Assembly: GCA_038087875.1 (NCBI GenBank)
Contig: CM075987.1
Span: forward strand, 25,918,001 to 25,982,000
DNA from: Malacoraja senta
Lineage: Eukaryota
Length of the DNA stretch: 64,000 nucleotides
Direction: 5' to 3'
Shown in pieces: positions 26,841 to 47,621 of the stretch. A program made the translations under genes and the position numbers. Position 1 is the stretch's first letter. Every line of letters begins with the position of its first letter. The notes beneath the pieces were generated by a model that saw only the letters and a program-made list of their open reading frames with translations, made no database searches and was not told the DNA's origin.

Positions 26841-28363
26841 CTAGAAAAATAATTTCTCTAAAGTAACCCCTGCATTCCCTCACTCTCCATCCCTCCCCCA
26901 CCCAAGTCGCACCAGCTTCTCGTTCTCACCTAGCAAACGGCTAACAATGGCCTGTTTCCTTTATCATCGTTGCCTTTTTGCATATCTTTCATTCATTTGT
27001 TCTACATCTCTCTACATCGCCGTCTATATCTCTCGTTTCCCTCCCCCCTGACTCTCGGACTGAAGAGGAAGGGTCTCGACCCGAAACGGGTCACCCATTC
27101 CTTCCATCCAGAGATGCTGCCTGTCCCGCTGAGTTACTCTGGCATTTTCTGTCCACCTTCTGGAAAATGGGCGTTCTGTGGAGGAACATCAGTGAACCAC
27201 GACGGTGGTCCTGAGATGTAAACTGAGGATCTAGCCCATCATTCTGTGTTTCACTCAAGAATCACGCTAGATGCCATCTTTTCAAGGAAGATTTAATTTA
27301 AGGGCAGCAGCGCAGCCTGTCGAGCCTAGGACTCGGGGAATCACAAGACACAGAAATGATCCCTTCAGCCCAACAAATCCATGACAACCATTCTACCCAT
27401 CTACACTAGTTTACTTTAGTTTATTTTTTAGTTTAGAGATACAGGAAACAGGCCCTTCGGCCCACCGTGTCCGCGCCGACCAGCGATCCCCTCACGTGAA
27501 GGGGATGTGCCAAAGGAGGAAACTAAAGATCGTGATCGATGAACCAAAGTTCTTGAGAAGTACGGGTGTCAGAGGTTATGAATGAATGAATGAATAAGTT
27601 TATTGGCCAAATATTCACATACAAGGAATTTGCCTTGGTGCTCCGCCCGCAAGTGACAACAACGACATACAGTGACAGTTAGGAATGACACATAAAACAT
27701 TAAACATTAATAATAAATAATTATGGGGAGAAGGCAGGAAAATGGGGTTAGGAGGGAGAGATAGATCAGCCATGATTGAATGGTGGAGTAGACTTGATGG
27801 GCGGAATGGCCTAATTCTGAACTTATCACTTATGATCTAATGATCTTGGAGATAACCCACGCAGGTCACGGGAAGAACGTACAAACTCCGTTCAGACAGC
27901 ACTCACAGTCAGGATCGAACCTGGGACTCTGGCGCTGTAAGGCAATAGCTCTACCGCTGTGCCACCGTGCCGCCCAATACAAATGGCAACTAAACTAATC
28001 CCATTTGCCTGCATTAGCTCCAAAGCCTTCAATGCCTGGACTATTCAAGTGGTTGTCTACATGCCTCTTAAGGTCTTAAGGTCATAAGGTCATAAGAAAT
28101 AGGAGTATAATTAGGCCATTCGGCCCATCAAGTCTACTCAAGTCAAGTCAAACTAAAGTTTGATCTTTATTTTATGAGGAGTTACGTTGGTGATTACGTG
28201 AAGAAGACCCGTCATGGCGCATGCGGTCCGCATGTGCGTCAATCTTCAAAGCAGCGGTATGAAATCACAGACAACACAATAATTGAAGTAACATATTAAG
28301 ATGAGGAACATGAGAACTACCATTACGACCTTTTTTCTATGAGAGAGGGTTGGGCGTGGCGGG

Positions 28364-28475
28364 CACGTAATCACCAACGTAACTCCTCATAAAATAAAGA
28401 TCAAACTTCAAACTGGTAAGTTCTCGTTTAATCTTACTATTTTACTTCGGAGTCACGTGAGTGACTACGTGAAGA
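28364..28475. repeat. DIRS copy A internal complementary region (ICR)
   Basis: 28364-28408 is a perfect 45-bp reverse complement of 28156-28200; 28439-28475 is a perfect 37-bp reverse complement of 32955-32991. Confidence 0.95.
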
Positions 28476-28683
28476 TTTCAAAGCTCTGTGATTTTATGCC
28501 GCAGATCAAAATCCCGGCTTCTCACTGCATCGATTGACTCTGAGTATAATCAATAATGCTGTAAACATGACATTGAATATCATGCAAAAAAAACAGTTTT
28601 ATTTTGGGTCATAAAACAAACAATAAACCCTCTTAATTTAGGGCAACTAACGAAACAGAATTAAACAGTATTGAAAACAGAAT

Positions 28684-29674
28684 TTAAACAATAGCAACAG
28701 CACTCAATATTGAGTTGGCAAACAGCCCTCCATCGGCAATCGGCCGATGGTAGTATTGCTGAAACACAAGTTCATTTTGCCACCCTGCGGCTTTTAATAT
28801 ATGGTCGATGGGAACGTCCATTGCCCTGGCCGCCGATGTTGCTGCTGCCCTAGTGGAATGAGATGTAAACACATCAGTGTTAATTCCTGCCTGAACCAAC
28901 ACTTGCTTTAACCACCTTGAGATAATCTGAACTGCCACTCTTTTATGTGGCTTCTTGTAACTGACAAATAATCCTGTTTCTTCATGTCTTAAAGCCCTTG
29001 TGGCCTCAATGTAATGTAACCAATGTGTCCTTACTCATAAACATGGATCTGTAGGATATGCTGAGAACACAATCTTAAATCCTGTCACACCTGGCCTGCT
29101 TTGTTTGAGCAGGTCATAAATATAAAACATAACATTCTCTATAGTCACTTCCATTCTATCTAACTGAAGTTTTTGCAAAGTCTGCACTCTCTGTGCTGAA
29201 ACCAATGCCATTAGCATAGCCAACTTTCATGGTTAATTTTGACAAAGTCATAGACGTGACAGGGACCCAATGACGAAGCATGTTAAGAACAACACTTACA
29301 TCCCAGATAACCATATACCTAGGCTTAGGCGGTTTGGAATTAAAGATTCCTTTCATCAACCTAGATATGAGAGGGTGAGAACCTATACTTTGTGTCCGTG
29401 TACCTATTGCAAGATATGCGGACAAAACACTTCTAGCTGTATTGATAGCACTATAGCTAAGACCCTCATCATAATAAAGTGTGGATAAAAACTCTAACAC
29501 ATTTTCAATAACTACAGTATCATATTGAATATTCTTTCCAACACAATATTGTTCCCATTTTTTTACATAAGTCATATACTGCTGTTGAGTACTCTTTCTC
29601 CAGGCTGCAGTGAGCATATCCACCGTTCGCCTAGAAAGTCCTCGACCCATGTAAGGCCTTCTTAAAACTTGCAA
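28684..29674 (-). pseudogene. DIRS tyrosine recombinase, disrupted
   Basis: AQRVQ, SHSTRAAATS, ILKAAGW, QYYHRP catalytic motifs across several ORF pieces. Confidence 0.9.
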
Positions 29675-30947
29675 ATTAACAGATCAATACGATCACATAA
29701 CGGATGAACTTCACGCGTTACCGGATGCTCCAGCAAATTCCTACTCTTTGGAATCAGCAAAGGAGGTTGGATCGCTATCTGTAACATCAAAGGGAACCAT
29801 GGTTGAGTTGGCCAATTTGGTATCACCAAAACCCCTGAAGCGGCATCCTGCTTGATTTTTTTTTATTTTTTTAATCATCGACCTATGAGAAAGAATGGTG
29901 GGAAAATGTACACAAACATATTACCCCAATTTAATGAAAAAGCGTCAATTGCCACTGCCCCTGGATCTGGTTCCCATGAAACATATTTTGGCTGCTGGTG
30001 GTTAAGCCTGGATGCAAACAAATCGATATCTGGCATTCCATATAGAAGTACTATGTTCTTGAACACATCCTGGTTCAACATCCACTCTGTATTATCACAG
30101 AATTTTAGTGACCTGGCATCTGCTACTACATTAGGTGTCCCTGGCAGATGGATAGCTGAAATCCAAATATCTCTATCCATACACCAGGTCCAAATTTGAT
30201 TTGCCAACCTGTCACATGATAACGATTTGATTCCACCCATGTGATTAATATAAGCAACTGCTGTAGTGTTGTCTATTTGGCACTGCACATGCAAGCTAGT
30301 TTTGTTAGTGCAATAAGCCTGGATCCATAAATACTCCTAAAAACTCTAAATGGTTAATTCCCCATGTTTGCAGAAGCAATGACTCTTGCTCAGTCCATCT
30401 GCCTCCACAGCTGGATCTCGTATCAGTAGCACCCCACCCAAGTGCATTGACATCTGTCTGCAAAATCATGGAAGCTTGGTCCAATAACACTTTAGAATTA
30501 CTAGTGGACACATGCTGAATCGACCATTGTACATCAGCAACAGCCTCTACTGATAGACGCATAGGCCTGTTATAATGACCCAAATGTATCCTCAGTGCTT
30601 GTTCCTTTGACCTTTGTACTGTTGATAATGAAGTGGCCCGTATTGAACTGCTGGAAATGCTGCCACCAATTTCCCAAGCAGGCTAGCCACCTGTCTAATT
30701 GAAGGCTGTGTGTCAGCAATCAACTTGATACAGCTCTCAATTAGCTCTACCCTTTTTTGCCTGGGCAAGGTCACAATCATGTTGATTGAGTCTATTTTGA
30801 ACCCAAATAGTCAATTTGTGTCACAGGTGTTAATTTAGATTTCTCTGGATGGATTATGAAGCCCACACTTTGAAAAGTGGTTTTAACAACTGCCACTGAT
30901 GCTTCAACTGTTTCCTTTGATTGTCCTACAATCAATATATCATCTAG
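29662..30947 (-). pseudogene. DIRS pol C-terminal part: RNase H and adenine-methyltransferase-like domain, frameshifted
   Basis: LQTDVNALGWG, INHLE, IDNTTAVAYINHMGG, HLPGTPNVVAD (RNase H); DIDLFASRLN and YIFPPF (MT). Confidence 0.88.
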
Positions 30948-32776
30948 TTAAGCCATGAGCACATGCCCTTGACTTCTCCTCATGCCTAGAATAGGTTTTA
31001 ACAACTTTGTAAAAACTCTAGGAGCTGAAGACAAACCATTAGGCAGTGCATTGTATTGCCATAATTGCCCCATCCAGCTGAATTTTAAATATCTTCTATC
31101 CTGCAAATGAACAGACACTGAATAATACGCATCTTTAAGATCTATAGTTGCCATATAGCATCCTCTGGAAACAAGTTGCTTAGCCGTCACAAACGTTTCC
31201 ATCTTAAAATGTCTATACCGTACAAAAGGGTTAAGACTAGTCAGGTCCAGTATAATTCTGCTTCCCTCATCCTTTTTTGGTCTGGGAAAGATATTGGACA
31301 CAAACTGTTGGCTTTGGTAAACTGCCTTAGCAATTACACCTTTATTACATAAGCTTTCAAGTTCCACCTGAACTTCCAATTGTTCAGTGATACTGAAGTC
31401 AAAACTCCTTTTTGGAACATGTTGCATGGGTAATTCAGAATTTGCATTAAACTCTATTCGAAACCCTTCAATAACATTCAGTATAAACATATCTGAGGTA
31501 ATTTGTTTCCATTCCTCTAAGAACAGATGTAATCTTCCTCCAACTTTTAATTGTATTACTTTAGATCTGTCTACATGAGAACCAGACCCACATACCTCAT
31601 TACAACCTGGCATCCTTCCCCGGCCTCGAGCTGGATATCCCACCTTCCCTGGCGCTGCTACAGCCGAACGCCAAATGCGCTGCATCGTAGCTCGACTTGT
31701 CCCTTGCCCGGACCAGTCTCCTCGCTTATAGGGATACTTCCGCGTCGGTGGATATGTGGCTACTGGCTGCTTAATCAAGCCCACCGTCTTGGCCTCCTCC
31801 TCCAGCTCCTTCACCTGCTTTGCGAAATCCTCGCCAAACAGTAGATTTGCCGGTTGCACTGTGCCAGGCTGGCAGAGTGAAGCATATTTAGGATTGATGG
31901 TTGGTCTTATCGCCGTTTTGCGGAGGCAGTTGATCTCAAAGTGGGCACTACACAATAGCGCCAGCACCTCTTGTTCTAATTTGGTCATGGCCTCTCCATC
32001 CACCATCCTGGCAAAGCTAGTTATGCCTGATCCCAGCAATTTTAAAATATGCTGGAGCTTCACCACCTGGGCTCTCCTTTGTATGCCCATCTGGCCCCAA
32101 ATCATCCTGTTCACAACAGGAACTTTTAACAGGCCACAGTTGATTGGGGCTTCATGCTTCTTTACTGTCTCCTCCATCGTCAGCTCCTGTAGCTGGTGTG
32201 AGATTAAGTAATTAATACTGGTGGCTATTTCCTTACCCAGAGGCTCACCAGCTTCCGACGACTTGGCAAACCGTGCTGCACACAGTGTCAGCTGTGGCAG
32301 CTGCCTGTCCTCCATTTCAAAGTCGTCGTCGGACTCAGGGTCAGAGCTTATCTGCCCTTCTGCACTCACCTCTTGAAAGAGGGTGCTTTCAAGCAGGCCT
32401 CTACCAGGCACTGCCGGCGGAGCCTTCCCCACGGCCTCCCTCCCACACAACTCCTCCTGGAGTGTGGCTTTGTGGAGCAGCCCCTGTATGAGCTGCTCCA
32501 TTTTGGATAACCACTGGGGCACGGTATCCTGTCCCGGACGGGACTCTCCTGGCCCGACTCTGCCGAGTCAATGGACCTAACAGACTTGGCTTTTGCCTTC
32601 CGCCTGACTGGCGTTGGCTGTGTACCCGGCTGGGCACTTGGGAGTGCCAAGTCTGTCGCCGCACCGCTACCGACTTGCGACTCCCCAGAGGTGACAGGCT
32701 GCCTTTCAGAGACTGCGCTCCCGCAGCTCTCTCTCCCCTTTTCCGTTGCACGCCTGCACCTTGTTGATTTGTCCAT
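30948..32776 (-). pseudogene. DIRS Gag plus reverse transcriptase N-terminal half in one frame; nonsense mutation in YLDD
   Basis: VGGRL, RIILDL, HFKMET, TIDLKDAYY, LPNGLSSAPRVFTK; YLDD reads TAA-CTA-GAT-GAT; gag ATG at 32776 is in a shifted frame. Confidence 0.9.
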
Positions 32777-32991
32777 TAATCCTGTATTTTAGGGATAAAC
32801 ACAGCAACAATTTTTCTTATCTCCTAAATCCTCCAAAGTCTCCCCGACTTTGGTGGAGCTTCTAAACTACTCACCTGCAGGAGGAGCTCCTCTTCCTGCT
32901 GCCGTTCACGCCAATGCGTCAGACGTAATGACGCGCATGCGCCCTGACGGGTTTTCTTCACGTAGTCACTCACGTGACTCCGAAGTAAAAT

Positions 32992-33495
32992 CTATCTATC
33001 TCTGCCTTAAAAATATCCATTGACTTGGCCTCGACAGCCTTCTGTGGCAAAGAATTCCACAGATTCACCACCCTCTGACTAAAGAAATTCATCCTCATCT
33101 CCTTCCTGAAATGTCCTTTAATTCTGAGCCTATGACCTCTAGTTCTAGACTTTCCCACTAGTGGAAGCATCCTCTCCACATCCACTCTATCCAAGCCTTT
33201 CACTATTCTGTACGTTTCAATGAGGTCCCCCTCATTCTTCTAAACTCCAGCGAGTACCGGCCCAGTGCCGTCAAACGCTCATCATAGGTTAACCTACTCA
33301 TTCCTGGGATCATTCTTGTAAACCTCCTCTGGACCCTCTCCAGAGCCAGCACATCCTTCCTCAGATACGGTGCCCAAAATTGCTCACAATATTCCAAATG
33401 TGGCCTTACCAGCGCCTTATAGAGCCTCAGCGTTACATCTCTGTTTTTTTGTATACAAGCCCCCTTGAAATAAATGCTAGCATTGAGTTTGCTTT
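32992..33495 (-). mobile_element. CR1 LINE fragment hosting DIRS copy A (3' tail at about 28070-28139)
   Basis: EYCEQFWAPYLRKDVLALERVQRRFTRMIPG, FSQRVVNLWNSLPQ. Confidence 0.9.
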
Positions 33496-33782
33496 AGTCA
33501 TTATCTGTTTTGTAATGCGTCACCAGTGCATAATATTGATGGGTGAAAAATTATACCGAATAAATGTCATTGGATAAATATTCATCAATGTTCAGCGATA
33601 AAATGAACTTTAAAATTCCAAGCCTCAAGTTAAATTTTTCACATGAGAAAATTGGTCTTCAAAATGTTATCATCAACACTTCATTCAAAGTGATAGGTAA
33701 TACCAGTCAGTTAGGAGATGTTAGACAGATAGATGTTAGGATATGTTTCCCCTGTCCACTTTCCTAACTGGGTAGACACTTA

Positions 33783-33974: not shown

Positions 33975-36900
33975 TTTAGAGATACTGGTAAAGGCTTATT
34001 TAAATAATGATAATTTTCATTTCATGTGCTCCATTTGCACAGAATTTAGTTTAGTTTTAGTTTAGGGATACAGCGCGGAAACAGGCCCTTCGGCCCATCG
34101 AGTCCGCGCCGACTAGCAATCTCTGTACATGAACACTATCCTACACACACTAGGGACAATTTACATTCATACCAAGCCAATTAAACTACAAACCTGTACG
34201 TCTTTGGAGTGTGGGAGGAAACCGAAGATCTCGGAGAAAACCCACGCAGGTCACGGGGAGGACGTACAAATTCCCTACAGACAGCACCCGTAGTCAGGAT
34301 CGAACCTGGGTCTCTGGTTCTCTACTGCTGCGCCACAGTGCCGCCCTGATCTCCTCCAAAATGATCATCTGCAAAAGATTTTGCACATGTAATTAAATCT
34401 AAGATATTACTACCCAACACGAAGCAATCTCAAGTAATTATTCCATTAAAATATCACCTTACATCAGCATGGTGGCGCAGCGGTAGAGTTGCTCCCATAC
34501 AGCGCCAGAGATCTGGTCTTAAAAATATCCATTAACTTGGCCTCCACAACCTTTTACGCTGGGACCCTTCTTCAGACTGATTCAAAAAGCCATTACCTAG
34601 CACTCCAGGGTTAGCTCAGTCTGAAGAATGATCCTGATCTGAAACATTAACCGTTATAGTTAAAAATAAGTCTGTGAACTCCTTAGGATTTTTCACCAAA
34701 GCATAATTTTTTCAAGGCACTTTGAATCTGCCAAAGTATTTTTTTTTTAAATGTTTTTGTGATAGGAGCAGAATGAGGCCATTTGGCCCATCAAGTCTAC
34801 TCTGCCATTGAATCATGGCTGATCTATCTTTCCCTCTCAACCCCATTCTTCTGCCTTCTCCCCATAACCCCTGACATGTTTATGGTCTCCAATACTGAAA
34901 TAATAACTAACTAGAAAATCAACACACAGTTATTCTGCATCAATGTAATCCCGATATAAAGAAAATGTTTCCATATAACATCATGAAAATAACTGATATT
35001 TCATAAAGTGCTACCACAGATTTAGAGATACAGAAGTTGGGAGGTCGTTATATTAGACGTCTGTGAGGCCACATTTAGAGTATTGTGTTCAGTTCTGGGC
35101 ACCGTGTCGCAGGAAAGACGTTGTCAAACTGGAAAGGGCACAGAGAAGATTTACAAGGATGTTGCCTGTACTCGAAGGTCTGAGCAACAGGGAGAGGTTG
35201 AGTAGGCTGAGACTCTATTCCTTGTAGCGCAGGAGGCTGAGGGGTTGATCTTATAGATGTGTATAGAATCATGAGAGAAACAGAGTCTAATGCCCAGAGG
35301 CGGTCACGGCTCCACAGCAGTAGAGTTGCTGCCTTACAGCAAAATGCAGCGCCGGAGACCCGGGTTCGATCCCGACTACGGGTGCTGTCTGTATGGAGTT
35401 TGTACCTTCTCCCCGTGACCTGCGTGGGTTTTCTCCGAGATCTTCGGTTTCCTCCCGCACTCCAAAGACGTGCAGGTTTGTAGGTTAATTGGCTTGATTA
35501 ATTGGCTTGATAAAAATGTAAAATTGTCCAAGTTGGGGATATGCAGAGTACTGCCATGCTGACTACAAAATTCAGAAGGTTCAGAAGGAGTAGAGGAATC
35601 GAGAACCAGAGGACAGTGGTTTAAAGTGAAGAGGAAAGGATGAAAAGGAACCTGAGATGTAACTTTTACACAGAAAGGGTGGTGGGGGTGTGGAACGAGC
35701 TGCCAGAGGAGGTAGTTGAGGCAGGGATTATGGCAATGTTTAAGAAACTGTTGGATAGGTATTTGGATAGCACAGGTTTGGTTTGGAAGGATAGGGGCCA
35801 AACGCTGGTAGGTCGGACTAGTGTTGGCCAGTATGGGCAAGTTGGGCCGAAGGGCCTGTTTCCACGCTGTACCACTCTATGAATTTATGATAATTTTATG
35901 TGCAAACTTTTCCCAGCTCCCTTTGAATTTCACAAGTCAACCACTTTTCCTCAGAGGAAAAAAGTGATTTTGATTTCAAGATAATCTTTGGAGTATTAGT
36001 GGTGAATAGTCTGCACTCCTTGACAATGCAGCGATGACAACTATTGAAACTGAAGAATAAATTATTTACAATGCAATAACTGACAGTACAATAACTGGGC
36101 CTGTGACTGGCTCTAATAAAGGGAAAAAACAAACACATCTGACAACTGGCACAGAGGGAGCAATCAATAAGCACATTTGCATTTTATTTTGTCTCGAATG
36201 CCCTTGGTAGTTGTGTATCCTGAATGTTTAGAACGAGCAATCAGAGAGACACAAAGAGAATTACAAGTATCTCAAAGAGCAGGACACAATTCCAAATAGA
36301 AATGTTGCCAAGAAACCCCTCTTGTCAATAGGCCATTACCGACCATTGTGGCAACAAGCGCCAATCGCAGATGTTCCGTGATAAATCACCCAAGGATGGA
36401 AGTGCGATGGCTTTGTAGAGAATTAGAACACAGATGATAACATTCACAAAGAAGGTGACACGGAATAAGACAACACAATGTTATAAATGGCCAGAGTCTT
36501 GTCCTTGTATTTGAGGGAGGAACTCATTGAAACTCACCGAATAGTGAAAGGCTTGGATAGAGTGGATGTGCGGAGAGGATATTTCCACTAGTGGGAGAGT
36601 CTAGGACCAGAGGCCATAGCCTCAGAATAAAAGGATGCTATTTTTGGAAGGAGATGAGGAGGAATCTCTGTAGTCAGAGGGGTGGTGAATCTGTGGAATT
36701 CATTGCCTCGAAAGGATGTCGAGGCCAGGTCATTGGAACCAAGAAACAGAGGACATCGGTTCAAGATGAGGGGGGAAAGGTTTCAAAGGGGTAACTTTTT
36801 TCAAACAATGGATGGTGGGTGTATAGAACGAGCTGCCGGAGGAGGTAGTTGAGGCAGATACTATCGGAAAATTTAAGAAGCATTGAGACAGGCACATGGA

Positions 36901-39900
36901 TAGGATAGGTTTAGAGGATATGCGTCAAATGCAGGCAGATGGGACTATTGTAGATGGGGCATGTTGGTCGGTGTGGGCAAGTTAGGCTGAAGGGCCTGTT
37001 TCGACGCTGTTTGACTATGACTCTGTGAATCTCCTTTGCTGATGACTAAATCTCTGACTGCTTTTCTGGGCAACATAAGACTTCCTTTTGATTTGACACT
37101 ATTTTTACTTCCTTTAAGAATAACGATTCGACCACCTTACGTGTTGCAAATTTTGCCCTTAAATAGATATAAAAATATCACAGTCAGGTTGAGAACCCTG
37201 CACTTACAATAACTGGTCTTAAAAATGGCACTAAACTGGCGACTCTGTATATTATCTCAGCTTACTCCTGCTAAACACTTCTCACTTATCTAAATATTTA
37301 AGTATTTGCCGTAGCTTTAGTTTAGTTTAGTTTAGAGATACAGCATGGAAACAGGCCCTTCGGCCCACCCAGTCTGCACTGACCAGCGATCACCGCACAT
37401 TAACACTATCCTACACACACTAGGGACAATTTACAAGTCAATTGACCTACAAACCTGTACGTCTTTCGTACCTCCTGCCTGATGGGAGAGGGGAGAAGAG
37501 GGAGTGACCACGGTGAGACTGGTCCCTTGATTATGCTGCTGGCCTTGCCGAGGCGGCGTGAAGTGGAGATGGAATTGATTGATAGGAGTATTGATACGTG
37601 CAAGAACATAATCACACGCTATCCTCCACACAGTGGGGACAATTTTACTTTTTTTTCATACCAGGCCAATTTATCTTCAAACCTGTACATCTATGGAGCT
37701 TGTTTCGTATCCTTTCTAATGCAGTTTCCAAATCTACAAAAGCAAACTCACACCTAATGCCTTTGTAAATCACTTTATTCTGATTTAAGACCCTGGTACC
37801 TATCAATTATTTTCAATTTGTATATAAAATTCTCATGTACTGTAAGCATTCTTCCCTGAAGCCCTTTGGTTATCAGATCATCAAAGCCCCCTTTATACTT
37901 GCACATTACCAGATCTAAAACAACCTATTTATTTTGTGGTTCCTCAACATACTGATCTCACAATCTCCCATATACACTTCATGAGTTCATCTTCCTGAGG
38001 CTAATTAGTCTTCCTCTGTCTATATGTTCATTAAATTCTTCCATGACTGTTGTATAATCTTTTTACATGCATCTTCGATGTCGATTCTTGTATGGGTGGC
38101 CACGGTGGTGCAACGGTAGAGTTGCTGCCTTACAGCGCTTGCAGCTCCGGAGACCCGGGTTCGATCCCAACTACAGGTGCTGTCTGTACGGAGTTTGTAC
38201 GTTCTCCCTGTGACCGCGTGGGTTTCCTCCGAGATCTTCTGTTTCCTTCCACACTCCAAAGGCGTACAGGTTTGTAGGTTATTTGGCTTGGTGCATGTGT
38301 AAATTGTCCCTAGTGTGTGTAGGATAGTGTTAATGTGCGGGGATCGCCGGTCAGTGCGGACTCAGTTTCCGCCCCGTATCTCTAAACTGATCTAAACTAA
38401 ATTATCATTACGGTTGAGGGACCTAGTTACGATCCTCAGTGATATTTTCTGTTCTGTCTTTCAGCTTTACCCAACCTATTCTGAATCACTTGTCGGAAGG
38501 AACTGCAGATGCCAAAGACTGACACAAAATGCTGGAGTAAGTTTAAGGCAGAGATATATAGATTCTTGACTAGTACAGGTGTCAGAGGTTATGGGGAGAA
38601 GGCAGGAGAATGGGGTTAGGAGAGATAGACCAGCCATGATTGAATGGCAAAGTATTATTTTCCCCTGCTTTGAATGTAGTACATGATGCACCCTAAAGGG
38701 CAGCAAGGTGGTGCAGCGGTAGAGTTGCTGCCTTCCAGTGCCAGAGACCCGGGCTCGATCCTGACTAAGGGTGCTGTCTGTACGGAAGTTTGCACGTTCT
38801 CCCCGTGACCATGTGGGTTTTCACCAGGTGCTCCGGTTTCCCCCCACATTCCAAAAACATGCAGGTTTGTTGGTTAATTGTCGGTTCTGCAAATTGCCCC
38901 TAGTGTGTAGGGTAGAACTAGTATACGGGGTGATCGCTGGTCGGCGCGGGCTTGGTGGGCTGAAGGGCCTGTTTCCACGCTGTATCGGTAAACTAAACTA
39001 AACTAAACTAAACTAAGCTAAACTAAACACTAAAGGACAAAAAATGCTGGAGTCTCAGGTTGAGACTCTTCATTAATAATATTTGCAAAGACTGTCCCTT
39101 CTTGATGGATTATCTTCACTCATTTTACTACTTCATGTTATCATTTTGCATTGCTGCCAACATTGGGTGAGAGTTGAGAGTGAGAGGTTGCGAGGGAGCG
39201 TAGCGACTGGGGGGGGGGTGAGGGTGTGGGAGGGGGTGTTCCCCCTCCCACGGTAGGGAGCTTTTGCATTTTTCAGCTTGAAATTGTGCAATCTGGTGCA
39301 TACTGTAGCGAGTCTTTTAACTTGCATTTGAATGCAACATTTACGCTTTAAATTGCATTAGGTATGAATAAGGTTAGGCTAAATTACATTCCTAATTACA
39401 TTCCACAATAGAGACACGCTCTGATCAACAGGTGCAGCACATGAATGACTGTATTCATATATGGAAATCAGATTATATTCATGCTGTTATGCATATATAT
39501 ATAGAAAGAAACTCAGAGAAACAAAGCAAAAGTCGGACTTCCATCACTGTTCTGCACAAATAAATCAATCAACCTTGTTCAAGAAGGAACTACAGATCTG
39601 GAGAATCGAAGCTAGACAAAATTGCTGGGAAACTCAGCGGTGCGGCAGCATCTATGGAGCGAAGGAAATACGCAATGTTTCGGGCGAAACCCTTCTTCAG
39701 ACGGTTTCAACCTTACCCTTTGCAGGGACCCTGCACTTCTTTCGGATATGGGAGAAACCAGAATATCCAGAGAAAACCCATGTGGCAGTAAGGCAGCAAC
39801 TCTACCACTGCGCCTCCGTGCCACCCCATTAAATTATTTTTTCTGTAATATATTTATTATGGTGTCACGTGAATAAAGATGAACACATGATTCTTATTTC

Positions 39901-40207
39901 TGCCCTTAGTTGGATAACACACATGTCCAGTCATTGTGTTTTATGGCTGGTTTTCAACCTCTTCAGGCTGAAGGTCTCGACTCGAAACATCACCCATTTT
40001 ACTTCGGAGTCACGTGAGTGACTACGTGAAGAACCCCGCCAGTGCGCCTGCGCGTCATTACGTCAGACGCCTTGACGCAAACGGACGTGAGGAGCAGTGC
40101 TCCTCGAGTGGTTTGTAGGTTTTCAACTACAAGGTAAGTAAAAACTTTTTTACAGGTTTTCCAGGTCCGTTTACTGCGGGTCTATGGCGATTTTTTCCAC
40201 AGACGCC

Positions 40208-43200
40208 ATGAAAAAACGGACAGGGGGAAGAGGCGAGCGACACAGCCGACAGAAGTCGGGAAAGTCGGGAGTCCGCGGTTAGAGACCAACCGCCTCTAAA
40301 CCCCGGTACAGCCGCCAGCGGTGAGCATAGCGACTGTGGACCTGGGGCTGGTGAAAACACAGTCAGCGCCTGTCGGGCAAAAGACAAAGTTTAAATCCCA
40401 ACAGAGGGAGTCCCAGGCAATGAAGAAGCTCCAGGGCTAGATACTGCTTTAGAGCGTATTGCCCAAATAGAAAGCCTTTTACACAGGCTGTTGGAGCAAA
40501 GTTCACTCAGGGAGGAGTGTTCTGAAAGCCAAAGCTGCTGGAAACAGCTCAAACAGCTCCTGGTACAAGGGCTAGATACTGCTTTCGAGCGTATTGCCCA
40601 AATAGAAGCCTTTTTCATAGGTTGTTGGAGCAAAAGTTCACTCAGGAAGGAGTGTACTGTAATCCAAGCTGCAGGAGCAGCTTAACAGCACCTGGCTCAG
40701 GGCTGATGGAATGCACCCTCAGGAATGAGGAGCGTGCTACGGGTCATGAGATTTCAGACCCCGACTCTGACGGTGAGGCTGTACAAGGCGATGAAAGGCA
40801 GCTGCCAGATGTTCCACCCCTGGTAGTAGGATTCGCTGCCCCGTCAGGGTCGGGAGAGCTATTAGGAAGAACTGGCCTCCTTAATAAATTACTTGGTTTA
40901 CCATTAGCTGGAACAGCATGAAATGGATGAGACTGCAAGAGTATCTGGAATCAGTTGCAGAGAATATTAAAGCTGCTGGGTTCTGGAATAACTGCTTTTA
41001 CCAGAATAGCAGGTAACAACCAAAAGATGACGAAGTTGCATCAGCAAGCACTGGGGTTGCTATGCAGCACCCACTTCGAGAAGATGCTATACGGTCTACT
41101 ATGAATCCGAAATTCGCAGCACTCTGCAAACCAAGTAATATACAAATTACCCAACTTACTCTTTGGAGAGATCTCGGGAGACGTATTAAAGAGTTGGAAG
41201 ATGAAGCGAAAACAGGATTGATGAAGACATCAATGGTTGTGAAGTCTGTAAAGAGGAAGTATCCTTTCAGACGTCATACGGATCCTGGACCAAGTCGCTC
41301 ATCAACGCAGGGACGTAGTTGGCGGCCTGCAGCGGGAGCAAGAACCAGTGGGCGTGCTTCCGGGAGAACCCAGGAATCTCAGGGTACTCAATTGACTCAA
41401 GAGGTAGGTGGACCTGGTTCTCATGGGAACATACTAACTGGATTAAGTCCAAAAGTTGGAGGCAGGTTACATTTCTTCTATAATAATTGGAAGAAAATTA
41501 CTTCAGATGTGGTAATCCTGAATAATATACAAGGATTTCGAATTGAATTCAATCCAAATTATGATTTGCCTGTTCAGCATGTTCCTAGCCGAACTCTGCA
41601 CTTTGTACAAAAAGAAGTGATGGAGGTTCAGGTTGCAATTGAAATCCTATATAAAAAAGGGGTTATTGAAAAATCAGTCTACCAAAGTCACCAATTTGTG
41701 TCAAATATATTCCCTCGATCAAAAAAGGATGGAGGATGTAGGATTCTTGTAGATTTGATAAATCTGAATCCTTTTGTGCCAATTTAGACATTTTAAAATG
41801 GAAACATTTGTGACTGCCAAACAGCTTATTTCAGAAGCATGTTATATGGCAACTATAGACTTGAAAGATGCATATTATTCAGTGTCTGTTCATTCAGAAG
41901 ATAGGAAGTATCTTAAATTTAAATGGATGAACCAGTTGTGGCAGTTCAAAGCTCTGCCTAATGGGTTAATATCTGCACCCAGAATATTCACAAAAATTGT
42001 TAAAACCAATTCTGGGCTTGCTGAGTAGCCAGGGGCATGTACTAATGGCATATTTGGATGATGTCTTGATTATAGGAAAGACAAAACAGTCAACAGAAGT
42101 ATCTGTTGCATTTGTGAAATCAACTTTTGAAAATTTGGGGTTTCTAATTCATCCACAGAAATCTAGGTTAACACCATGTACCTCTATTAATTATTTGGGG
42201 TTCACAATTGATTCAGTCCAAATGAATATCACTTTGCCCAGGGAAAAGGGTGGATTTGATTAAAGATTGCAGTAATCTCCTAAACGAACAAAAACCTTCA
42301 ATTAGACAGGTGGCTCGTGTACTGGGAAAATAGTAGCAGCATTCCCAGCAGTCCAATTCGGACCATTACATTATCAACAGCTGCAGAGACTTAAAGAACA
42401 GGCACCGAGAATGCATGTTGGTCATTTTGATAGAACCATGCAACTAACAACAAATGCTGTTTCTGATCTGCAGTGGTGGATTCTACATGTCTCAAGCAGT
42501 TCCAGCAAAGTGCTGATTGAACAACCTTCCATGATATTACAAACTGATGCCAGTGCACCAGGATGGGGTGCAACTGACTTAACATCTAGCTGAGGAGGCA
42601 GATGGAATCAGGAAGAGTCATTGTTACTGCAGACATGGGGAATTAACTATTTGGAGCTTCTAGGATGTTTCTATGGGCTCCAAGCTTATTGTTCTAACAC
42701 AACTAATAAGCATGTTCAAGTTCAAATTGATAACACAACAGTGGTTGTTTATATTAATGATATGGAATTAAGTCGGTGTCTTGTGACAAAATGGTTAATC
42801 AACTTTGGGCTTGGTGTATTTGAAAAGAACATTTGGATTTCAGCTATCTATCTACCAGGCAGAATGAACGATAGCAGACACCAAGTCACGAGAAGTTCCA
42901 TGATAATAAAGAATGGATGTTGAATCAAGAGGTATTCATTGATATAGTCATCAGATTTGGAATGACCGACATCGACTTGAATCATCAGCTATCGAGATAT
43001 GTCTCATGGAAACCAGATCCAGGAGCAGTGGCGATTGATGCTTCTCGCTACATTGGGGTGGTATGTTTTCATATATATTTCCACCTTTCTGCCTCATAAG
43101 CCAATGTTTGCTTAAAATCAGGCAAGATGCTGCTTCAAGGGTATTAGTAGTACCAGATTGGCCTACACAGCCATGGTATCCGTTGATATTAGAATTAACA

Positions 43201-43310
43201 ACACAAATGTTGATGAAAGTCCCAAAAAAGAGTAATTTATTGCTGCACCCTGTACAGGGGAACAACATCCATTATATGATCGTTTGGATTTGTTGATTTG
43301 CAGGTTTTAA
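40208..43310 (+). pseudogene. DIRS copy B gag-pol (RT, RNase H, MT), many frameshifts
   Basis: VGGRL, HFKMET, TIDLKDAYY, AYLDDVLI, LQTDAS, IDNTT, YIFPPF. Confidence 0.9.
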
Positions 43311-44274
43311 GAATGCCTTTTCTGGACGAGGACTGTCTGAGCATACTGTGGACATGCTTACGGCAGCCTGGAGGAAGAGCACTCAAAAACAGTACCTTTC
43401 TTATATTAAGAAATGGGAAAAGTTCTGGGTACAAAAGAATGTGCAATAAAGTACTGCAGATATTTCAAATGTTTAGAATTTCTGTCAAAACTTTATTATG
43501 ATGAAGGTCTGAGTTTATAGTGTAATTAATTCAGCCAGAAGTGCATTGTCCTCATATTTGGTTCTGGATTCAGAAAGAAACTCAATTGGGTCACACCCAA
43601 TTGTTTCCAGACTAATGAAAGGAATCTTTAATTCCAAACCACCGAAACCTAGGTACGTGACAATCTGGGATGTAAGTGTGGTACTGAAACTACTTTGTGA
43701 TGGTTATCAAGTGTGTCTTTACCTTTGGTCAAGCTCAGTATGAAAGTATTCATGTTTATGGCATGAGTGACAGCACAACGAGTGCAAACACTGGAAAATT
43801 ACAAATAGATACTATGGAAGTAACTGAAGACAAGGTTACATTCTATATCTATGACCTAATAAAGCAAATTAGGCCAGGTGTGACAGGATTTAAAATTATG
43901 CTGGCAGCATATCCAAATGATCCATGTCTTTGTATTAAGACATATTTATTACAATACATTGAGGTCACAAAGAATTTGAGAATACGGAAACTGGGTTTTT
44001 GATCACACACAAGAAACCACACAAGAGAGTTTCAATACAGACTATTTCCAGATGGATAAAAGAAGTCTTAACAGCTGCTGGTATTAACACTTATGTTTTT
44101 ACGTCTCACTCGACTAGGGCAGCAGAAATGTCGGCGGCCAGGGCAAAAGACGGCCCCGTCGACCATATCCTCGCAGCCGCCGGGTGGTCCAATGAGTTGA
44201 TGTTTCAACATTTTTACCATCGGCCTATTGTTAATGCGGGGTTGTTTGCAGAAACTATTTTAAGTTCTGTGTAA
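43298..44274 (+). pseudogene. DIRS copy B tyrosine recombinase, frameshifted
   Basis: SHPIVSRLMKGIFN, SHSTRAA, ILAAAGW, FYHRP. Confidence 0.9.
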
Positions 44275-45589
44275 ATTCCTCTGGTTTAAAGGGGATCTGA
44301 TTCATTTCATTCTTGAAATGAATTACTGCATTTGTGGTACAAATGTTATTATGAATGCATGATTGATTATTCTCGTTCCGAGTCAATCTATGCAGTGAGA
44401 AGCCGGGATTGATCCACGGCATGAAATCACAAAGCTTTAAAATCTTCACGTAGTCCACTCACGTGATTCCGAAGTAAAATAGTAAGATTAAACGAGAACT
44501 TACCTAAGTTTGAAGTTTGATCTTTATTTTATGAGGAGTTACGTAGGTGATTACGTGCCCGCCACGACCCTACCCTCTATCATAAAGGTCAGATGGAAGT
44601 TCTTGTATTACTCGTTTTAGTATGAGACTATATTACTTCGGTTCTTGTTTTTTGTGATTTCACACCGCTGCTTTGAAGATTGACGCGCAGGCGCACTGAC
44701 GGGCTTCTTCACGTAATCACCTACGTAACTCCTCATAAAATAAAGATCAACTTCAAACTTAGGTAAGTTCTCGTTTAATCTTACTATTCTTTCTCTCCAG
44801 AGATGCTGCCTGTCCTGCTGAGTTTTTCTAGTTTTTAGTGTCTATCTTCAGTTTAAACCAGCATCTGCAATTCCTTCCTACACTATTTGTTAAGCAAAAC
44901 AGGTCCTATTGTCATTATATAATGTTGTGATCAGCGTGAGAGCATGAGAGTTTTGTGAAATGCGTGAGTCTCACGCTTAATGCGTGCGAGTTGGCAGCCC
45001 TGCTAATAATGCAAACATTTTATGCAAGTTCCAATTGTTTGGACAAAAATCACTTATTACTGCTTTATAACAGTTAAGTTACATTAAGACCATTTCAGAA
45101 ATTATGGCAGTCAACAAAAAATCAACTAACAAATTAAAGCAAATTAAAAGAAAATAACATGTTCCCTTTCCTGACTCTACCTCATAAGTACTTTAACGCT
45201 GTTAACAGAGCAAAGGGATATTAATCTCAAGAATCAAAATGGGGAAAGTGAGGGCAATTTTGTTTAAATGGTCATTCTAAGCCCATTCAGATCTGCATAG
45301 AGTCAGAGTTATACAACATGTACATGGCTGGCCCAATTTGTCCACAATGATCAAGTTGGCATTCTGCGTGCCCAGGTCAGCTCACGTCCCAGGGACTGGC
45401 TGCAGTTCTCAGGTCGGCTTGCCTGCCCCGACCCCGTGAAAACGAATTGAAAACCCCCCCGCGGTTTTTCAGGTTACGGGTCGGATTCGGCCCGTGTGCC
45501 GTAGGTTGCCGAACCCTGTCCTAGATGTTTGGCCTCATTGTGGTCCCCGCCCATGTTTTACAACCAATTCACCTGGTTAGTTCTATCTC

Positions 45590-45830
45590 CGGCTGCTTCA
45601 TGTTGTCGGCGGCTGCACATCCAACCAAGAAAGAAGAGAAGAGAAGAGATGCGATGTCACTCACAGCCGCCAACTGACGCGCTTCCCCAGACTGCACAGA
45701 TCGCTGTGATGTGGCGCAATAGAGACAAACTGTGCAGGGACTGAAGACAGCGTGAGAATTCTGTCATCAGCGTGAGCATTATCTGAAATGCATGACTCTC
45801 ACGCTCAAAGTGTGAGTGTTGGCAGCCCTG
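45590..45830. mobile_element. Right end of a hAT-like element; related copy at about 47095-47314
   Basis: Both end GTTGGCAGCCCTG and share ggctgcacatccaacca..gacaaactgtgcagggactgaa. Confidence 0.55.
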
Positions 45831-45850
45831 TCTAAGGCCAGGATGTGACA

Positions 45851-45885
45851 ACAGACACACAGGGAGACACATACACAAAGGAAGA

Positions 45886-45934
<49 letters not shown>

Positions 45935-46706
45935 ACGCACACGCACACGCACACCACACGCACACGCACACGCACACGCACACACAGACACGCACACACA
46001 CAGGGAGACACACATACACAGGAAAACACACACACACAAGGAGATACACACACACAGGGAGACACACACACACAGGGAGACACACACACACAGGGAGACA
46101 CCGACACACAGACACACACACACACACACAGGGAGACACACACACACTGGGAGACACACACACACACAGGGAGACACCACACACAGGGAGACACACACAC
46201 ACAGGGAGACACACACACACAGGGAGACACACACAGGGAGACAGACACAACAAGCACACACACACACACAGGGAGACACAGACACACACACACACACAAG
46301 GAGACACACACAAGGAGACAGACACACAAGCACACACACACACACACAGGGAGACACACACACACAGGGAGACACACACACACAGGGAGACACACACACA
46401 CAGGGAGACACACACAGGGAGACAGACACACAAGCACACACACACACACAGGGAGACACAGACACACACACACACACAAGGAGACACACACAAGGAGACA
46501 GACACACAAGCACACACACACACACACAGGGAGACACACACACACACAAGGAGACACACACAAGGAGACAGACACACAAGCACACACACACACACACAGG
46601 GAGACACACACACACACAGGGAGGCACACACACACACAGGGAGACACACACACACAAGGAGACACACACAAGGAGACAGACACACAAGCGCACACACACA
46701 CACACC
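45851..46706. repeat. Complex (CA)n-GGGAGA/AGGAGA satellite with higher-order structure
   Basis: CA runs punctuated by GGGAGA, AAGGAGA and AAGC. Confidence 0.97.
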
Positions 46707-47621
46707 TTTTCTTCCCCCTCCCTCCATCCACCCCTTCCTCCCTCCTGCCCCCATCCTTCCCTCTTTCCTCCCCCTCCCTCTTTCTCCACTTTCTCCTTTC
46801 CTTCCTTCATCCCCTTTCTACATTCCCTCCCCTTGTCTCTCTTTGCCTCCATCCCTCCTTTTTTCCTTTCCCTCTCTCTCTCTCTCTCTCTCTTTCCCCC
46901 CTTCCTCTCTCTCCGGCCGCCCAATGGGGAGTCTGGCGGGCATGGTGTAGCGTGGATTGGCGACGCTGGCGTTGCCGTGTGAGTTGAAGGGCAGGAGGGA
47001 GGGAGGGAGGGAGGGAGGGAGGGAGGAGCGAGGCTGCAGCGGCGGCCGGCAGCGCAGCGCTCACAGCCGGCACATAGAGCTGCTGACACCCGCCCGGCGG
47101 CTGCACATCCAACCAGAGAGAAGAGACGCGACGTCACTCACAGCCGGCAACCGACGCGCTTCCCCAGACCGTGCAGATCCCTGGCACGCGGCGCAAAGGG
47201 ACAAACTGTGCAGGGACTGAACTCAGCGCGAGAACTCGGTCATGAGCGTGAGGGCGTGAGAATTTGCTCCAAGACGTGATTCTCACGATGAAAGCGTGAG
47301 AGTTGGCAGCCCTGATTATGTCCTTTTTTTTTCCTGCAGTCATCCACTCAAGTTCTAGAAACTCATACGTGTAAGACAAAGGATGGACAGATGCATCTTT
47401 CGTGCAGTCTCACTGTCGCACAGAGTCACACCTCTTATTCCTCCACCCAGAACGCTTCTACAATATTAAATTTAAGTTATATAAGAGCTTCCAGGAATCA
47501 AAGTATCCAAAGACCGACAACAGATCGACACAAAATGCCGGAATAACTCAGCGGGACAGGCAGCATCTCTGGAGAGAAGGATAGGTGATGTTTCGGGTCG
47601 AGACCCTTCTTCAGACTGAAT

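Follow-up and report, generated by a model that had tools for sequence, protein, structure and literature searches.

A probable, apparently undescribed expression plan in DIRS1-like retrotransposons: predicted splicing of Gag to the tyrosine recombinase

In Drosophila copia a spliced gag RNA controls the ratio of the proteins, the same kind of control as in the plant elements considered below, and the env mRNAs of retroviruses and gypsy, as well as the spliced pol mRNA of foamy viruses, express a downstream ORF by splicing. The DIRS1-like elements analysed here resemble the env and foamy systems in that the pol region is treated as an intron for the downstream ORF. Those systems use a leader donor and the own start of the downstream gene, whereas the donor here lies past gag and the predicted product is a Gag fusion. 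The nearest analogue is the shGAG splicing of plant Ty1/Copia elements, in which, according to the available text of PMC5580714, a conserved splice inside the retrotransposon's own coding region sets protein ratios. That splice makes Gag only, while the DIRS splice predicted here would swap reverse transcriptase, RNase H and methyltransferase (RT-RH-MT) for the tyrosine recombinase (YR) behind Gag.

Dictyostelium DIRS-1 and the DIRS1-like elements share with the elements studied here gag, an RT-RH-MT pol, YR, inverted terminal repeats, an internal complementary region (ICR) and an overlap of pol and YR, as far as the available text of PMC3266345 and PMC7192593 goes. The same text describes three ORFs with variable overlap and states no route to the translation of YR. 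The letters "splic" are absent from the available text of PMC3266345, PMC9210276 and PMC3783388, and in that of PMC7192593 splicing refers to a marker intron. No report of a Gag-YR splice was found in the accessible parts of the literature searched (including PMC6681497, PMC8547959, PMC5633606, PMC4495291 and bioRxiv 10.64898/2026.05.21.726589), and we consider a mention in the main DIRS reviews rather unlikely. Nor was an answer found there to how DIRS elements translate a YR ORF that often is without a start codon, or to why its overlap with pol is so variable; a conserved splice, if true, would answer both. Our data suggest that an animal clade of DIRS1-like elements quite probably makes its recombinase by alternative splicing, where unspliced RNA would give Gag-Pol and spliced RNA Gag-YR. 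This expression plan is probably real and apparently undescribed, in a known type of element.

Two decayed elements and their predicted splice sites

The window, i.e. the whole analysed stretch of 64,000 nucleotides from Malacoraja senta, holds two decayed elements, copy A and copy B (Table 1), which are 72% identical over 3487 columns. In each of them, self-BLAST and alignment revealed inverted repeats at the termini together with an ICR whose sequence is complementary to the two ends. The RT of copy A gave a Pfam RVT_1 match of 3.1e-6, which falls just short of the curated cut-off owing to the broken ORF, and its YR matched Phage_integrase (7.5e-7) and a SAM-like domain (2e-4). The RH/MT piece of the window has no direct Pfam match; it is 49% identical (E 3e-48) to residues 977-1127 of protein P0206, which has an RT_RNaseH domain at 935-1027 and a Dam domain at 1055-1155, in line with an RNase H and a Dam-like methyltransferase after RT. 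The window gag has no Pfam family; at E 1e-33 it is similar to what sea-urchin relatives encode as their first ORF, i.e. a gag-like first ORF, and YR occupies a separate frame, the -1 frame of pol, with an overlap of 7 nt with the end of pol in copy B. These features agree with the definition of DIRS1-like elements in the available text of PMC3266345, and the window elements are assigned to this known type of retrotransposon. Rfam gave no match within the window. The regions 33000-33600, 35000-39800 and 45800-47100 contain SINE- and LINE-like repeats, presumably similar to repeats known from cartilaginous fishes, as well as a long tandem array rich in CA.

Table 1. Positions of the two elements in the window and of their parts (a slash marks a splice junction).
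Feature	Positions	Strand	Basis or remark
DIRS1-like element copy B, decayed	39996..44788	+	ITR/ICR matches, 72% identity to copy A
Candidate leader intron, copy B (AAG/GTAAGT ... CCACAG/), predicted from sequence	40134..40202	+	Top-scoring donor and top-scoring acceptor of copy B; ends 5 nt before gag ATG 40208
gag, copy B, broken (internal duplication, deletions, stops)	40208..41403	+	3' end in RT frame; gag HMM match in pol frame
Phase-0 donor GTAGGT at gag/RT boundary, copy B	41404..41409	+	Weight-matrix score, A/B comparison
Proposed 1900-nt intron, copy B (RT-RNase H-methyltransferase coding region, broken)	41404..43303	+	Predicted sites
Methyltransferase FPPF motif, copy B	43078..43092	+	Cys next, so ancestral AG of most relatives absent
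Out-of-phase AG	43085..43100	+	Weak score in copy B; strong in copy A and in L001
Phase-0 acceptor TTGTTGATTTGCAG at YR start, copy B	43288..43303	+	Position shared with L001, L002 and the Diadema models
Tyrosine recombinase frame, copy B, broken	43304..44274	+	First ATG 43313; one-base loss near 43323
Internal complementary region, copy B	44443..44557	+	Self-comparison
DIRS1-like element copy A, decayed	28156..32991	-	Terminal inverted repeats and ICR
Candidate leader intron, copy A (CAG/GTGAGT ... AATACAG/), predicted from sequence	32782..32874	-	Donor rank 1/296; acceptor weak, score 3.8; ends 5 nt before gag ATG 32776
gag, copy A	31596..32776	-	Shares the RT frame; a single frame break near 32540
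Phase-0 donor GTATGT, copy A	31590..31595	-	Rank 4 (tied 3) of 296
Best-scoring acceptor of copy A, not in phase with YR	29883..29896	-	Use would end Gag after 3 codons
YR acceptor position, copy A, CAA for CAG	29669..29683	-	CAA at 29671-29669
Tyrosine recombinase frame, copy A, broken	28684..29668	-	First ATG 6 codons in

The initial annotation had read the pol region as an intron whose removal would fuse Gag to YR. The sites on which it relied are present: Gag reads into RT without a stop in both copies (ORFs 41017-41787, plus, and 30948-32567, minus), and phase-0 donors stand at the same gag/RT boundary, GAG/GTAGGT from 41404 in copy B and GAG/GTATGT from 31595 minus in copy A. The acceptor of copy B, TTTGTTGATTTGCAG (TTGCAG/), ends at 43303 in phase 0, and the 1900-nt intron would join ..LTQE to VLRM.. 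in frame. Copy A has, as had been noted, CAA at this position, with the YR frame from 29668 and an equivalent intron span of 1927 nt. The further claim that YR opens without an ATG holds for the first codons, but an ATG follows 3 codons (B) or 6 codons (A) past the acceptor. The marks of a U2-type intron (GT..AG, pyrimidine tract and a phase that preserves the frame) are present in copy B and in 28 relatives, and in copy A the AG is missing.

When scored with approximate weight matrices, the acceptor of copy B ranks second among 348 AGs and its gag/RT donor third among 268 GTs within the element. At the gag/RT donor the identity between A and B climbs from 2-5/12 to 9-10/12 bases and the GC content drops from 52% to 37%. 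The YR frame is closed 8 codons (B) and 5 codons (A) upstream of the acceptor position. By itself the two-copy case proves little. It is weakened by the nearby ATGs, by a frame break in B, by acceptor letters in B that double as the last pol codons (..LIC-R-F-stop, with the pol stop at 43308-43310; pol of copy A ends ..LIC-K-F-stop at the same position) and by leader donors at 40134 (B) and 32874 (A), which outscore the gag/RT donors and rank first in each copy. The break in B is a one-base loss about 7 codons past the acceptor, so that a product spliced from copy B itself would fall out of the YR frame. This loss is missing in about half of the depth (22 contigs in run X1, and run X7) and is therefore a lesion of copy B or its branch. 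The gag of copy B also contains a tandem duplication of about 135 nt (40433-40704, units 86% alike), one unit of which is skipped by X1 and X7 contigs, and the duplication is thus variable within the family.

Copy A has no AG at the YR acceptor and no other phase-0 AG nearby. It carries about 10 frame lesions, and the prior for a chance G>A at one given base of it is small, a few in a hundred at most. Since this prior and the frequency of families without any phase-0 acceptor (0/44, see below) are of like size, it appears about evenly balanced whether the CAA is a mutation of this single copy. Should CAA be genuine for family A, YR would there likely be reached through the leader donor together with the ATG six codons in. 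An A-rich insertion of about 9 nt is found just past the FPPF motif of copy A (29875-29850, minus), and X1 loose ends with A-runs occur at 41894.

Acceptor and donor sites in related families

A search with the YR protein returned 150 proteins. In a scan of metagenome contigs the best 80 of 224 relatives gave 78 loci and 48 families (85% identity), the YR start being mapped in 47 of them, and all counts of families given here are drawn from these best 80 of 224. Judging from the named protein matches, the hosts are presumably marine invertebrates. Viral contigs gave no match to the YR protein, the YR alignment or the acceptor DNA pattern, and genome contigs gave no match.

The notion of an AG that is universal at the exact position of the window was rejected, as only 3 of 47 families have it, and the acceptor position of the window is a derived state of one clade. 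This clade comprises the window copies, L001, L002 and the sea urchin Diadema (SH-aLRT 99, from a quick tree, as are all groupings here), with the acceptor at the same codon in all and, where the DNA is known, the YR frame closed 5-8 codons above it. In a wider sense the site is conserved: 44 of 47 families have an acceptor in phase 0 where their YR frame opens, the others being L021 and L055 (indels) and L053 (motif missing), and the AG is kept in all 70 member loci checked. The usual acceptor lies about 72 codons upstream, at the methylase motif FPPF-S, where the pyrimidine run from the codons of the motif ends in a phase-0 AG. In the 34 families with this arrangement (L051, placed by hand, is a 35th) the 2430 codons below the AG contain 3 stops in the YR frame, versus 230 in the 2448 codons above it, and the other alternative frame has 213 in 2600 over the same stretch. 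The AG is part of a TAG in 11 of the 34, which means that the YR frame opens at the acceptor itself. The serine of FPPF-S is encoded by AGY in 36/38 cases versus 124/599 elsewhere, and control serine columns that are equally fixed, as TCN, have AGY in 3/37, 0/46 and 0/17. Binomial P values for this codon were dropped since inheritance inflates them, and the AGY count overstates selection.

The nine families without an AG at FPPF-S all have 1-6 stops in the overlap, together with a phase-0 AG past the last stop. These relocated sites, which were picked by eye after the data had been seen, start 0 codons from the last stop in 5/9 and 5, 7, 15 and 30 codons from it in the others, at a background (acceptor score of at least 4.5) of 34/1194 at the stop and 231/1194 within 30 codons. 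The families concerned are scattered over several lineages, with at least 3 changes forced by the starred branches and 7 on the quick tree.

Donors were sought in the 32 families with an RT start, in an interval of 36-180 nt before the RT tryptophan that was set after the data had been seen. A phase-0 donor with a score of at least 7.5 is present in 24/32, as compared to 5 for phase 1 and 0 for phase 2, and the background is 6/329 windows inside pol. The donor of L005 is at -384, and L019 is without the GT, but two other members of its family have it. The length between both sites is 1613-1991 nt in 28 relatives. In L052 a mere 1238 nt separate the gag core from YR, as compared to about 2000 nt in the others, and the RT start is missing, which points to an internal deletion.

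The frames of gag and pol differ in most families, and gag stops before the donor, which is in the pol frame; Gag-YR would accordingly need a -1 frameshift plus the splice. A slippery TTTTTTA or AAAAAAC in the -1 register from gag to pol was found in 22/27 families versus 9/224 control windows, and such in-register heptamers suggest -1 frameshifting between gag and pol in the DIRS relatives. Basic or Phe-Leu codons in gag could enrich runs of the slippery type, and the folds downstream of the heptamers range from -3 to -27 kcal/mol, as values with no shuffle control. The slippery sites lie at the gag 3' end, e.g. at -231 in L002 and -99 in L009, and the conserved Gag motif FLG is the TTTTTTA site.

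The families L004, L005, L011 and L034 form a separate clade (SH-aLRT 99) in which Gag is in frame with pol. All four carry tandem donors 93-392 nt before RT, the phase-1 site preceding the phase-0 site by 5-8 nt. Use of the phase-1 site would end Gag within 1-2 codons, and this pair is predicted to be a splice-based stand-in for the frameshift that would give free Gag. For the window lineage no clear source of free Gag was found; the out-of-phase AG about 205 nt upstream of the acceptor is a speculative candidate.

Reads, fused products and gene models

Reads and contigs of 4 of 15 runs were aligned to 40000-44430 (copy B). In X1 as many as 18,519 contigs aligned, which shows that family B is high-copy, and in X13 and X14 nothing aligned to copy B. 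The 41403/43304 joint is not among the 14 joints listed for the four runs, of which X7, likely the RNA, has no cover at the donor (41184-41775). Variants at the four splice-site bases of family B are absent from the 40 listed of 339 entries. The changes in X7 are A>G at 84 places and T>C at 82, with any other change at 24 or fewer, a pattern that resembles A-to-I editing and makes X7 look like RNA. One X7 contig spans the acceptor unspliced, as genomic RNA would. A loose end in X7 reads as the element's 3' terminus linked to its 5' end (or as antisense ICR), with A read as G, and, with the excess of A>G and T>C, it resembles the outcome of ADAR hyper-editing, in which double-stranded DIRS RNA made from both strands would be the substrate.

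No spliced (intron-less) retro-copy was present among the 50 loci with gag and YR mapped. Two protein searches gave no single contig ORF of Gag-YR, both being weak tests: the first covered 1153-3290 aa, outside the expected size of the fusion, and the second had one match, a Gag-Pol. Fused products were found as gene models. P0005, one of the 150 proteins, and P0158, which turned up along with it, are RefSeq models, i.e. predictions, from the sea urchin Diadema antillarum, in which Gag is joined to YR without RT at ..PKE/VLKLPF, and this junction (E/V) falls at the same YR codon as in the window. In the Diadema element the stop of Gag itself precedes the junction by a few codons, and the models arrive there in another frame via an extra small intron; they therefore support the sites and not the exact product.

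The splice reading is thus supported by in-phase sites across divergent families, by an acceptor relocation that tracks the closure of the YR frame, and by the two sea-urchin models. The original proposal, with Gag-RT-RH-MT from unspliced and Gag-YR from spliced RNA, gains from this comparison, but it has to be amended in that the acceptor position of the window is derived and most relatives would need the -1 frameshift too.

Proposed expression plan and alternative routes

The plan starts from what was observed, namely the sequences and phases of the sites, the openness of the YR frame and the relocation of the acceptor. From these we infer that splicing and frameshifting occur and that fusion to Gag packages YR into the particle. 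Genomic RNA left whole would serve as template for reverse transcription and as mRNA for Gag-RT-RH-MT, while a splice from the phase-0 gag/pol donor to the phase-0 acceptor at the YR opening would remove RT-RH-MT and set YR behind Gag. Entry into the pol frame would depend, in most relatives, on a -1 slip at TTTTTTA or AAAAAAC, and both RNAs would yield mostly Gag and little Gag-Pol or Gag-YR. In the in-frame lineages, including that of the window, the spliced RNA would yield Gag-YR directly. The excess of Gag would be supplied by the -1 slip or by the second donor, and the partial overlap of YR and pol would be the trace of an acceptor inside the methylase coding region. A role of the Gag fusion in packaging YR is suggested because DIRS elements are without a protease, as described in the available text of PMC3783388.

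We also lean towards a general plan for animal DIRS1-like elements, in which Gag would be the N terminus of Gag, Gag-Pol and Gag-YR, splicing would pick the enzyme, a -1 frameshift or a tandem out-of-phase donor would set the excess of free Gag, and the overlap would mark an acceptor that has moved several times. A Gag-fused recombinase may hold order-wide, via an unspliced long overlap in other clades. If this is true, the real recombinase protein has to be redefined as a Gag fusion, in most families with a linker of about 70 residues from the overlap, which bears on annotation, on the biochemistry of DIRS integration and on any use of these recombinases. It would also be a retrotransposon whose genome must stay unspliced although its RT gene serves as an intron, comparable to the way in which retroviruses express env.

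In the window lineage the main partner of a real acceptor might instead be the leader donor, which would give an env-like, singly spliced RNA and a free YR from the ATG 3-6 codons on, with no Gag fusion. An ATG does precede the GLS-like motif in both copies, at different codons in A and B. This motif is kept in 42/44 families, and in 16/44, including the nearest, L001 and L002, the YR frame is open without an ATG before it. The leader donor is the best in both copies and a strong donor near the 5' end was seen in three relatives, yet the gag/pol donor has been retained by A and B alike and by the majority of the relatives. We consider it improbable that the leader donor is the main partner, and the two routes can coexist.

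Production of YR without any splicing, be it through an internal promoter or, behind the stop of pol, through stop-restart or leaky scanning, is in our view very doubtful. The splice-like motifs would then be by-products of V-S before RT, of FPPF-S and of C-R. The FPPF codons alone do make a pyrimidine run, but this leaves unexplained why the stop-free -1 frame starts at the AG, why the AG relocates when the frame closes, and why donors occur 45-384 nt from RT without surrounding conservation of the protein. In copy B an in-frame ATG, from which translation could restart, lies 2 nt past the pol stop, an arrangement that does not account for the families without an ATG. That no joint was seen among those listed in the mapped runs agrees with this explanation. 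The least likely route, and a hardly credible one, is that ribosomes leave pol by a second -1 frameshift, either at FPPF or where pol ends, and so produce Gag-Pol-YR, for although every examined family has YR in pol's -1 frame and CCCTTTY-like runs occur at FPPF in a few, most FPPF runs and the window junction are not X XXY YYZ heptamers, and the TAG that directly follows FPPF in the YR frame in 11/34 families excludes it there, as it would stop a shifted ribosome.

The Gag-YR fusion that we favour can be compared to the long-overlap DIRS proteins P0197 (ENA, 1438 aa) and P0205 (a Pelodytes model), each of which is one protein with an N terminus in the position of gag and a C-terminal YR, without RT. 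The N terminus of both is below the pass of the gag HMM, its identity as gag being judged by position. Unlike in the window lineage, their YR frame runs unspliced across all of pol. The residues at the end of gag, KR-YV and YG-KD, could hide a donor in these proteins as well.
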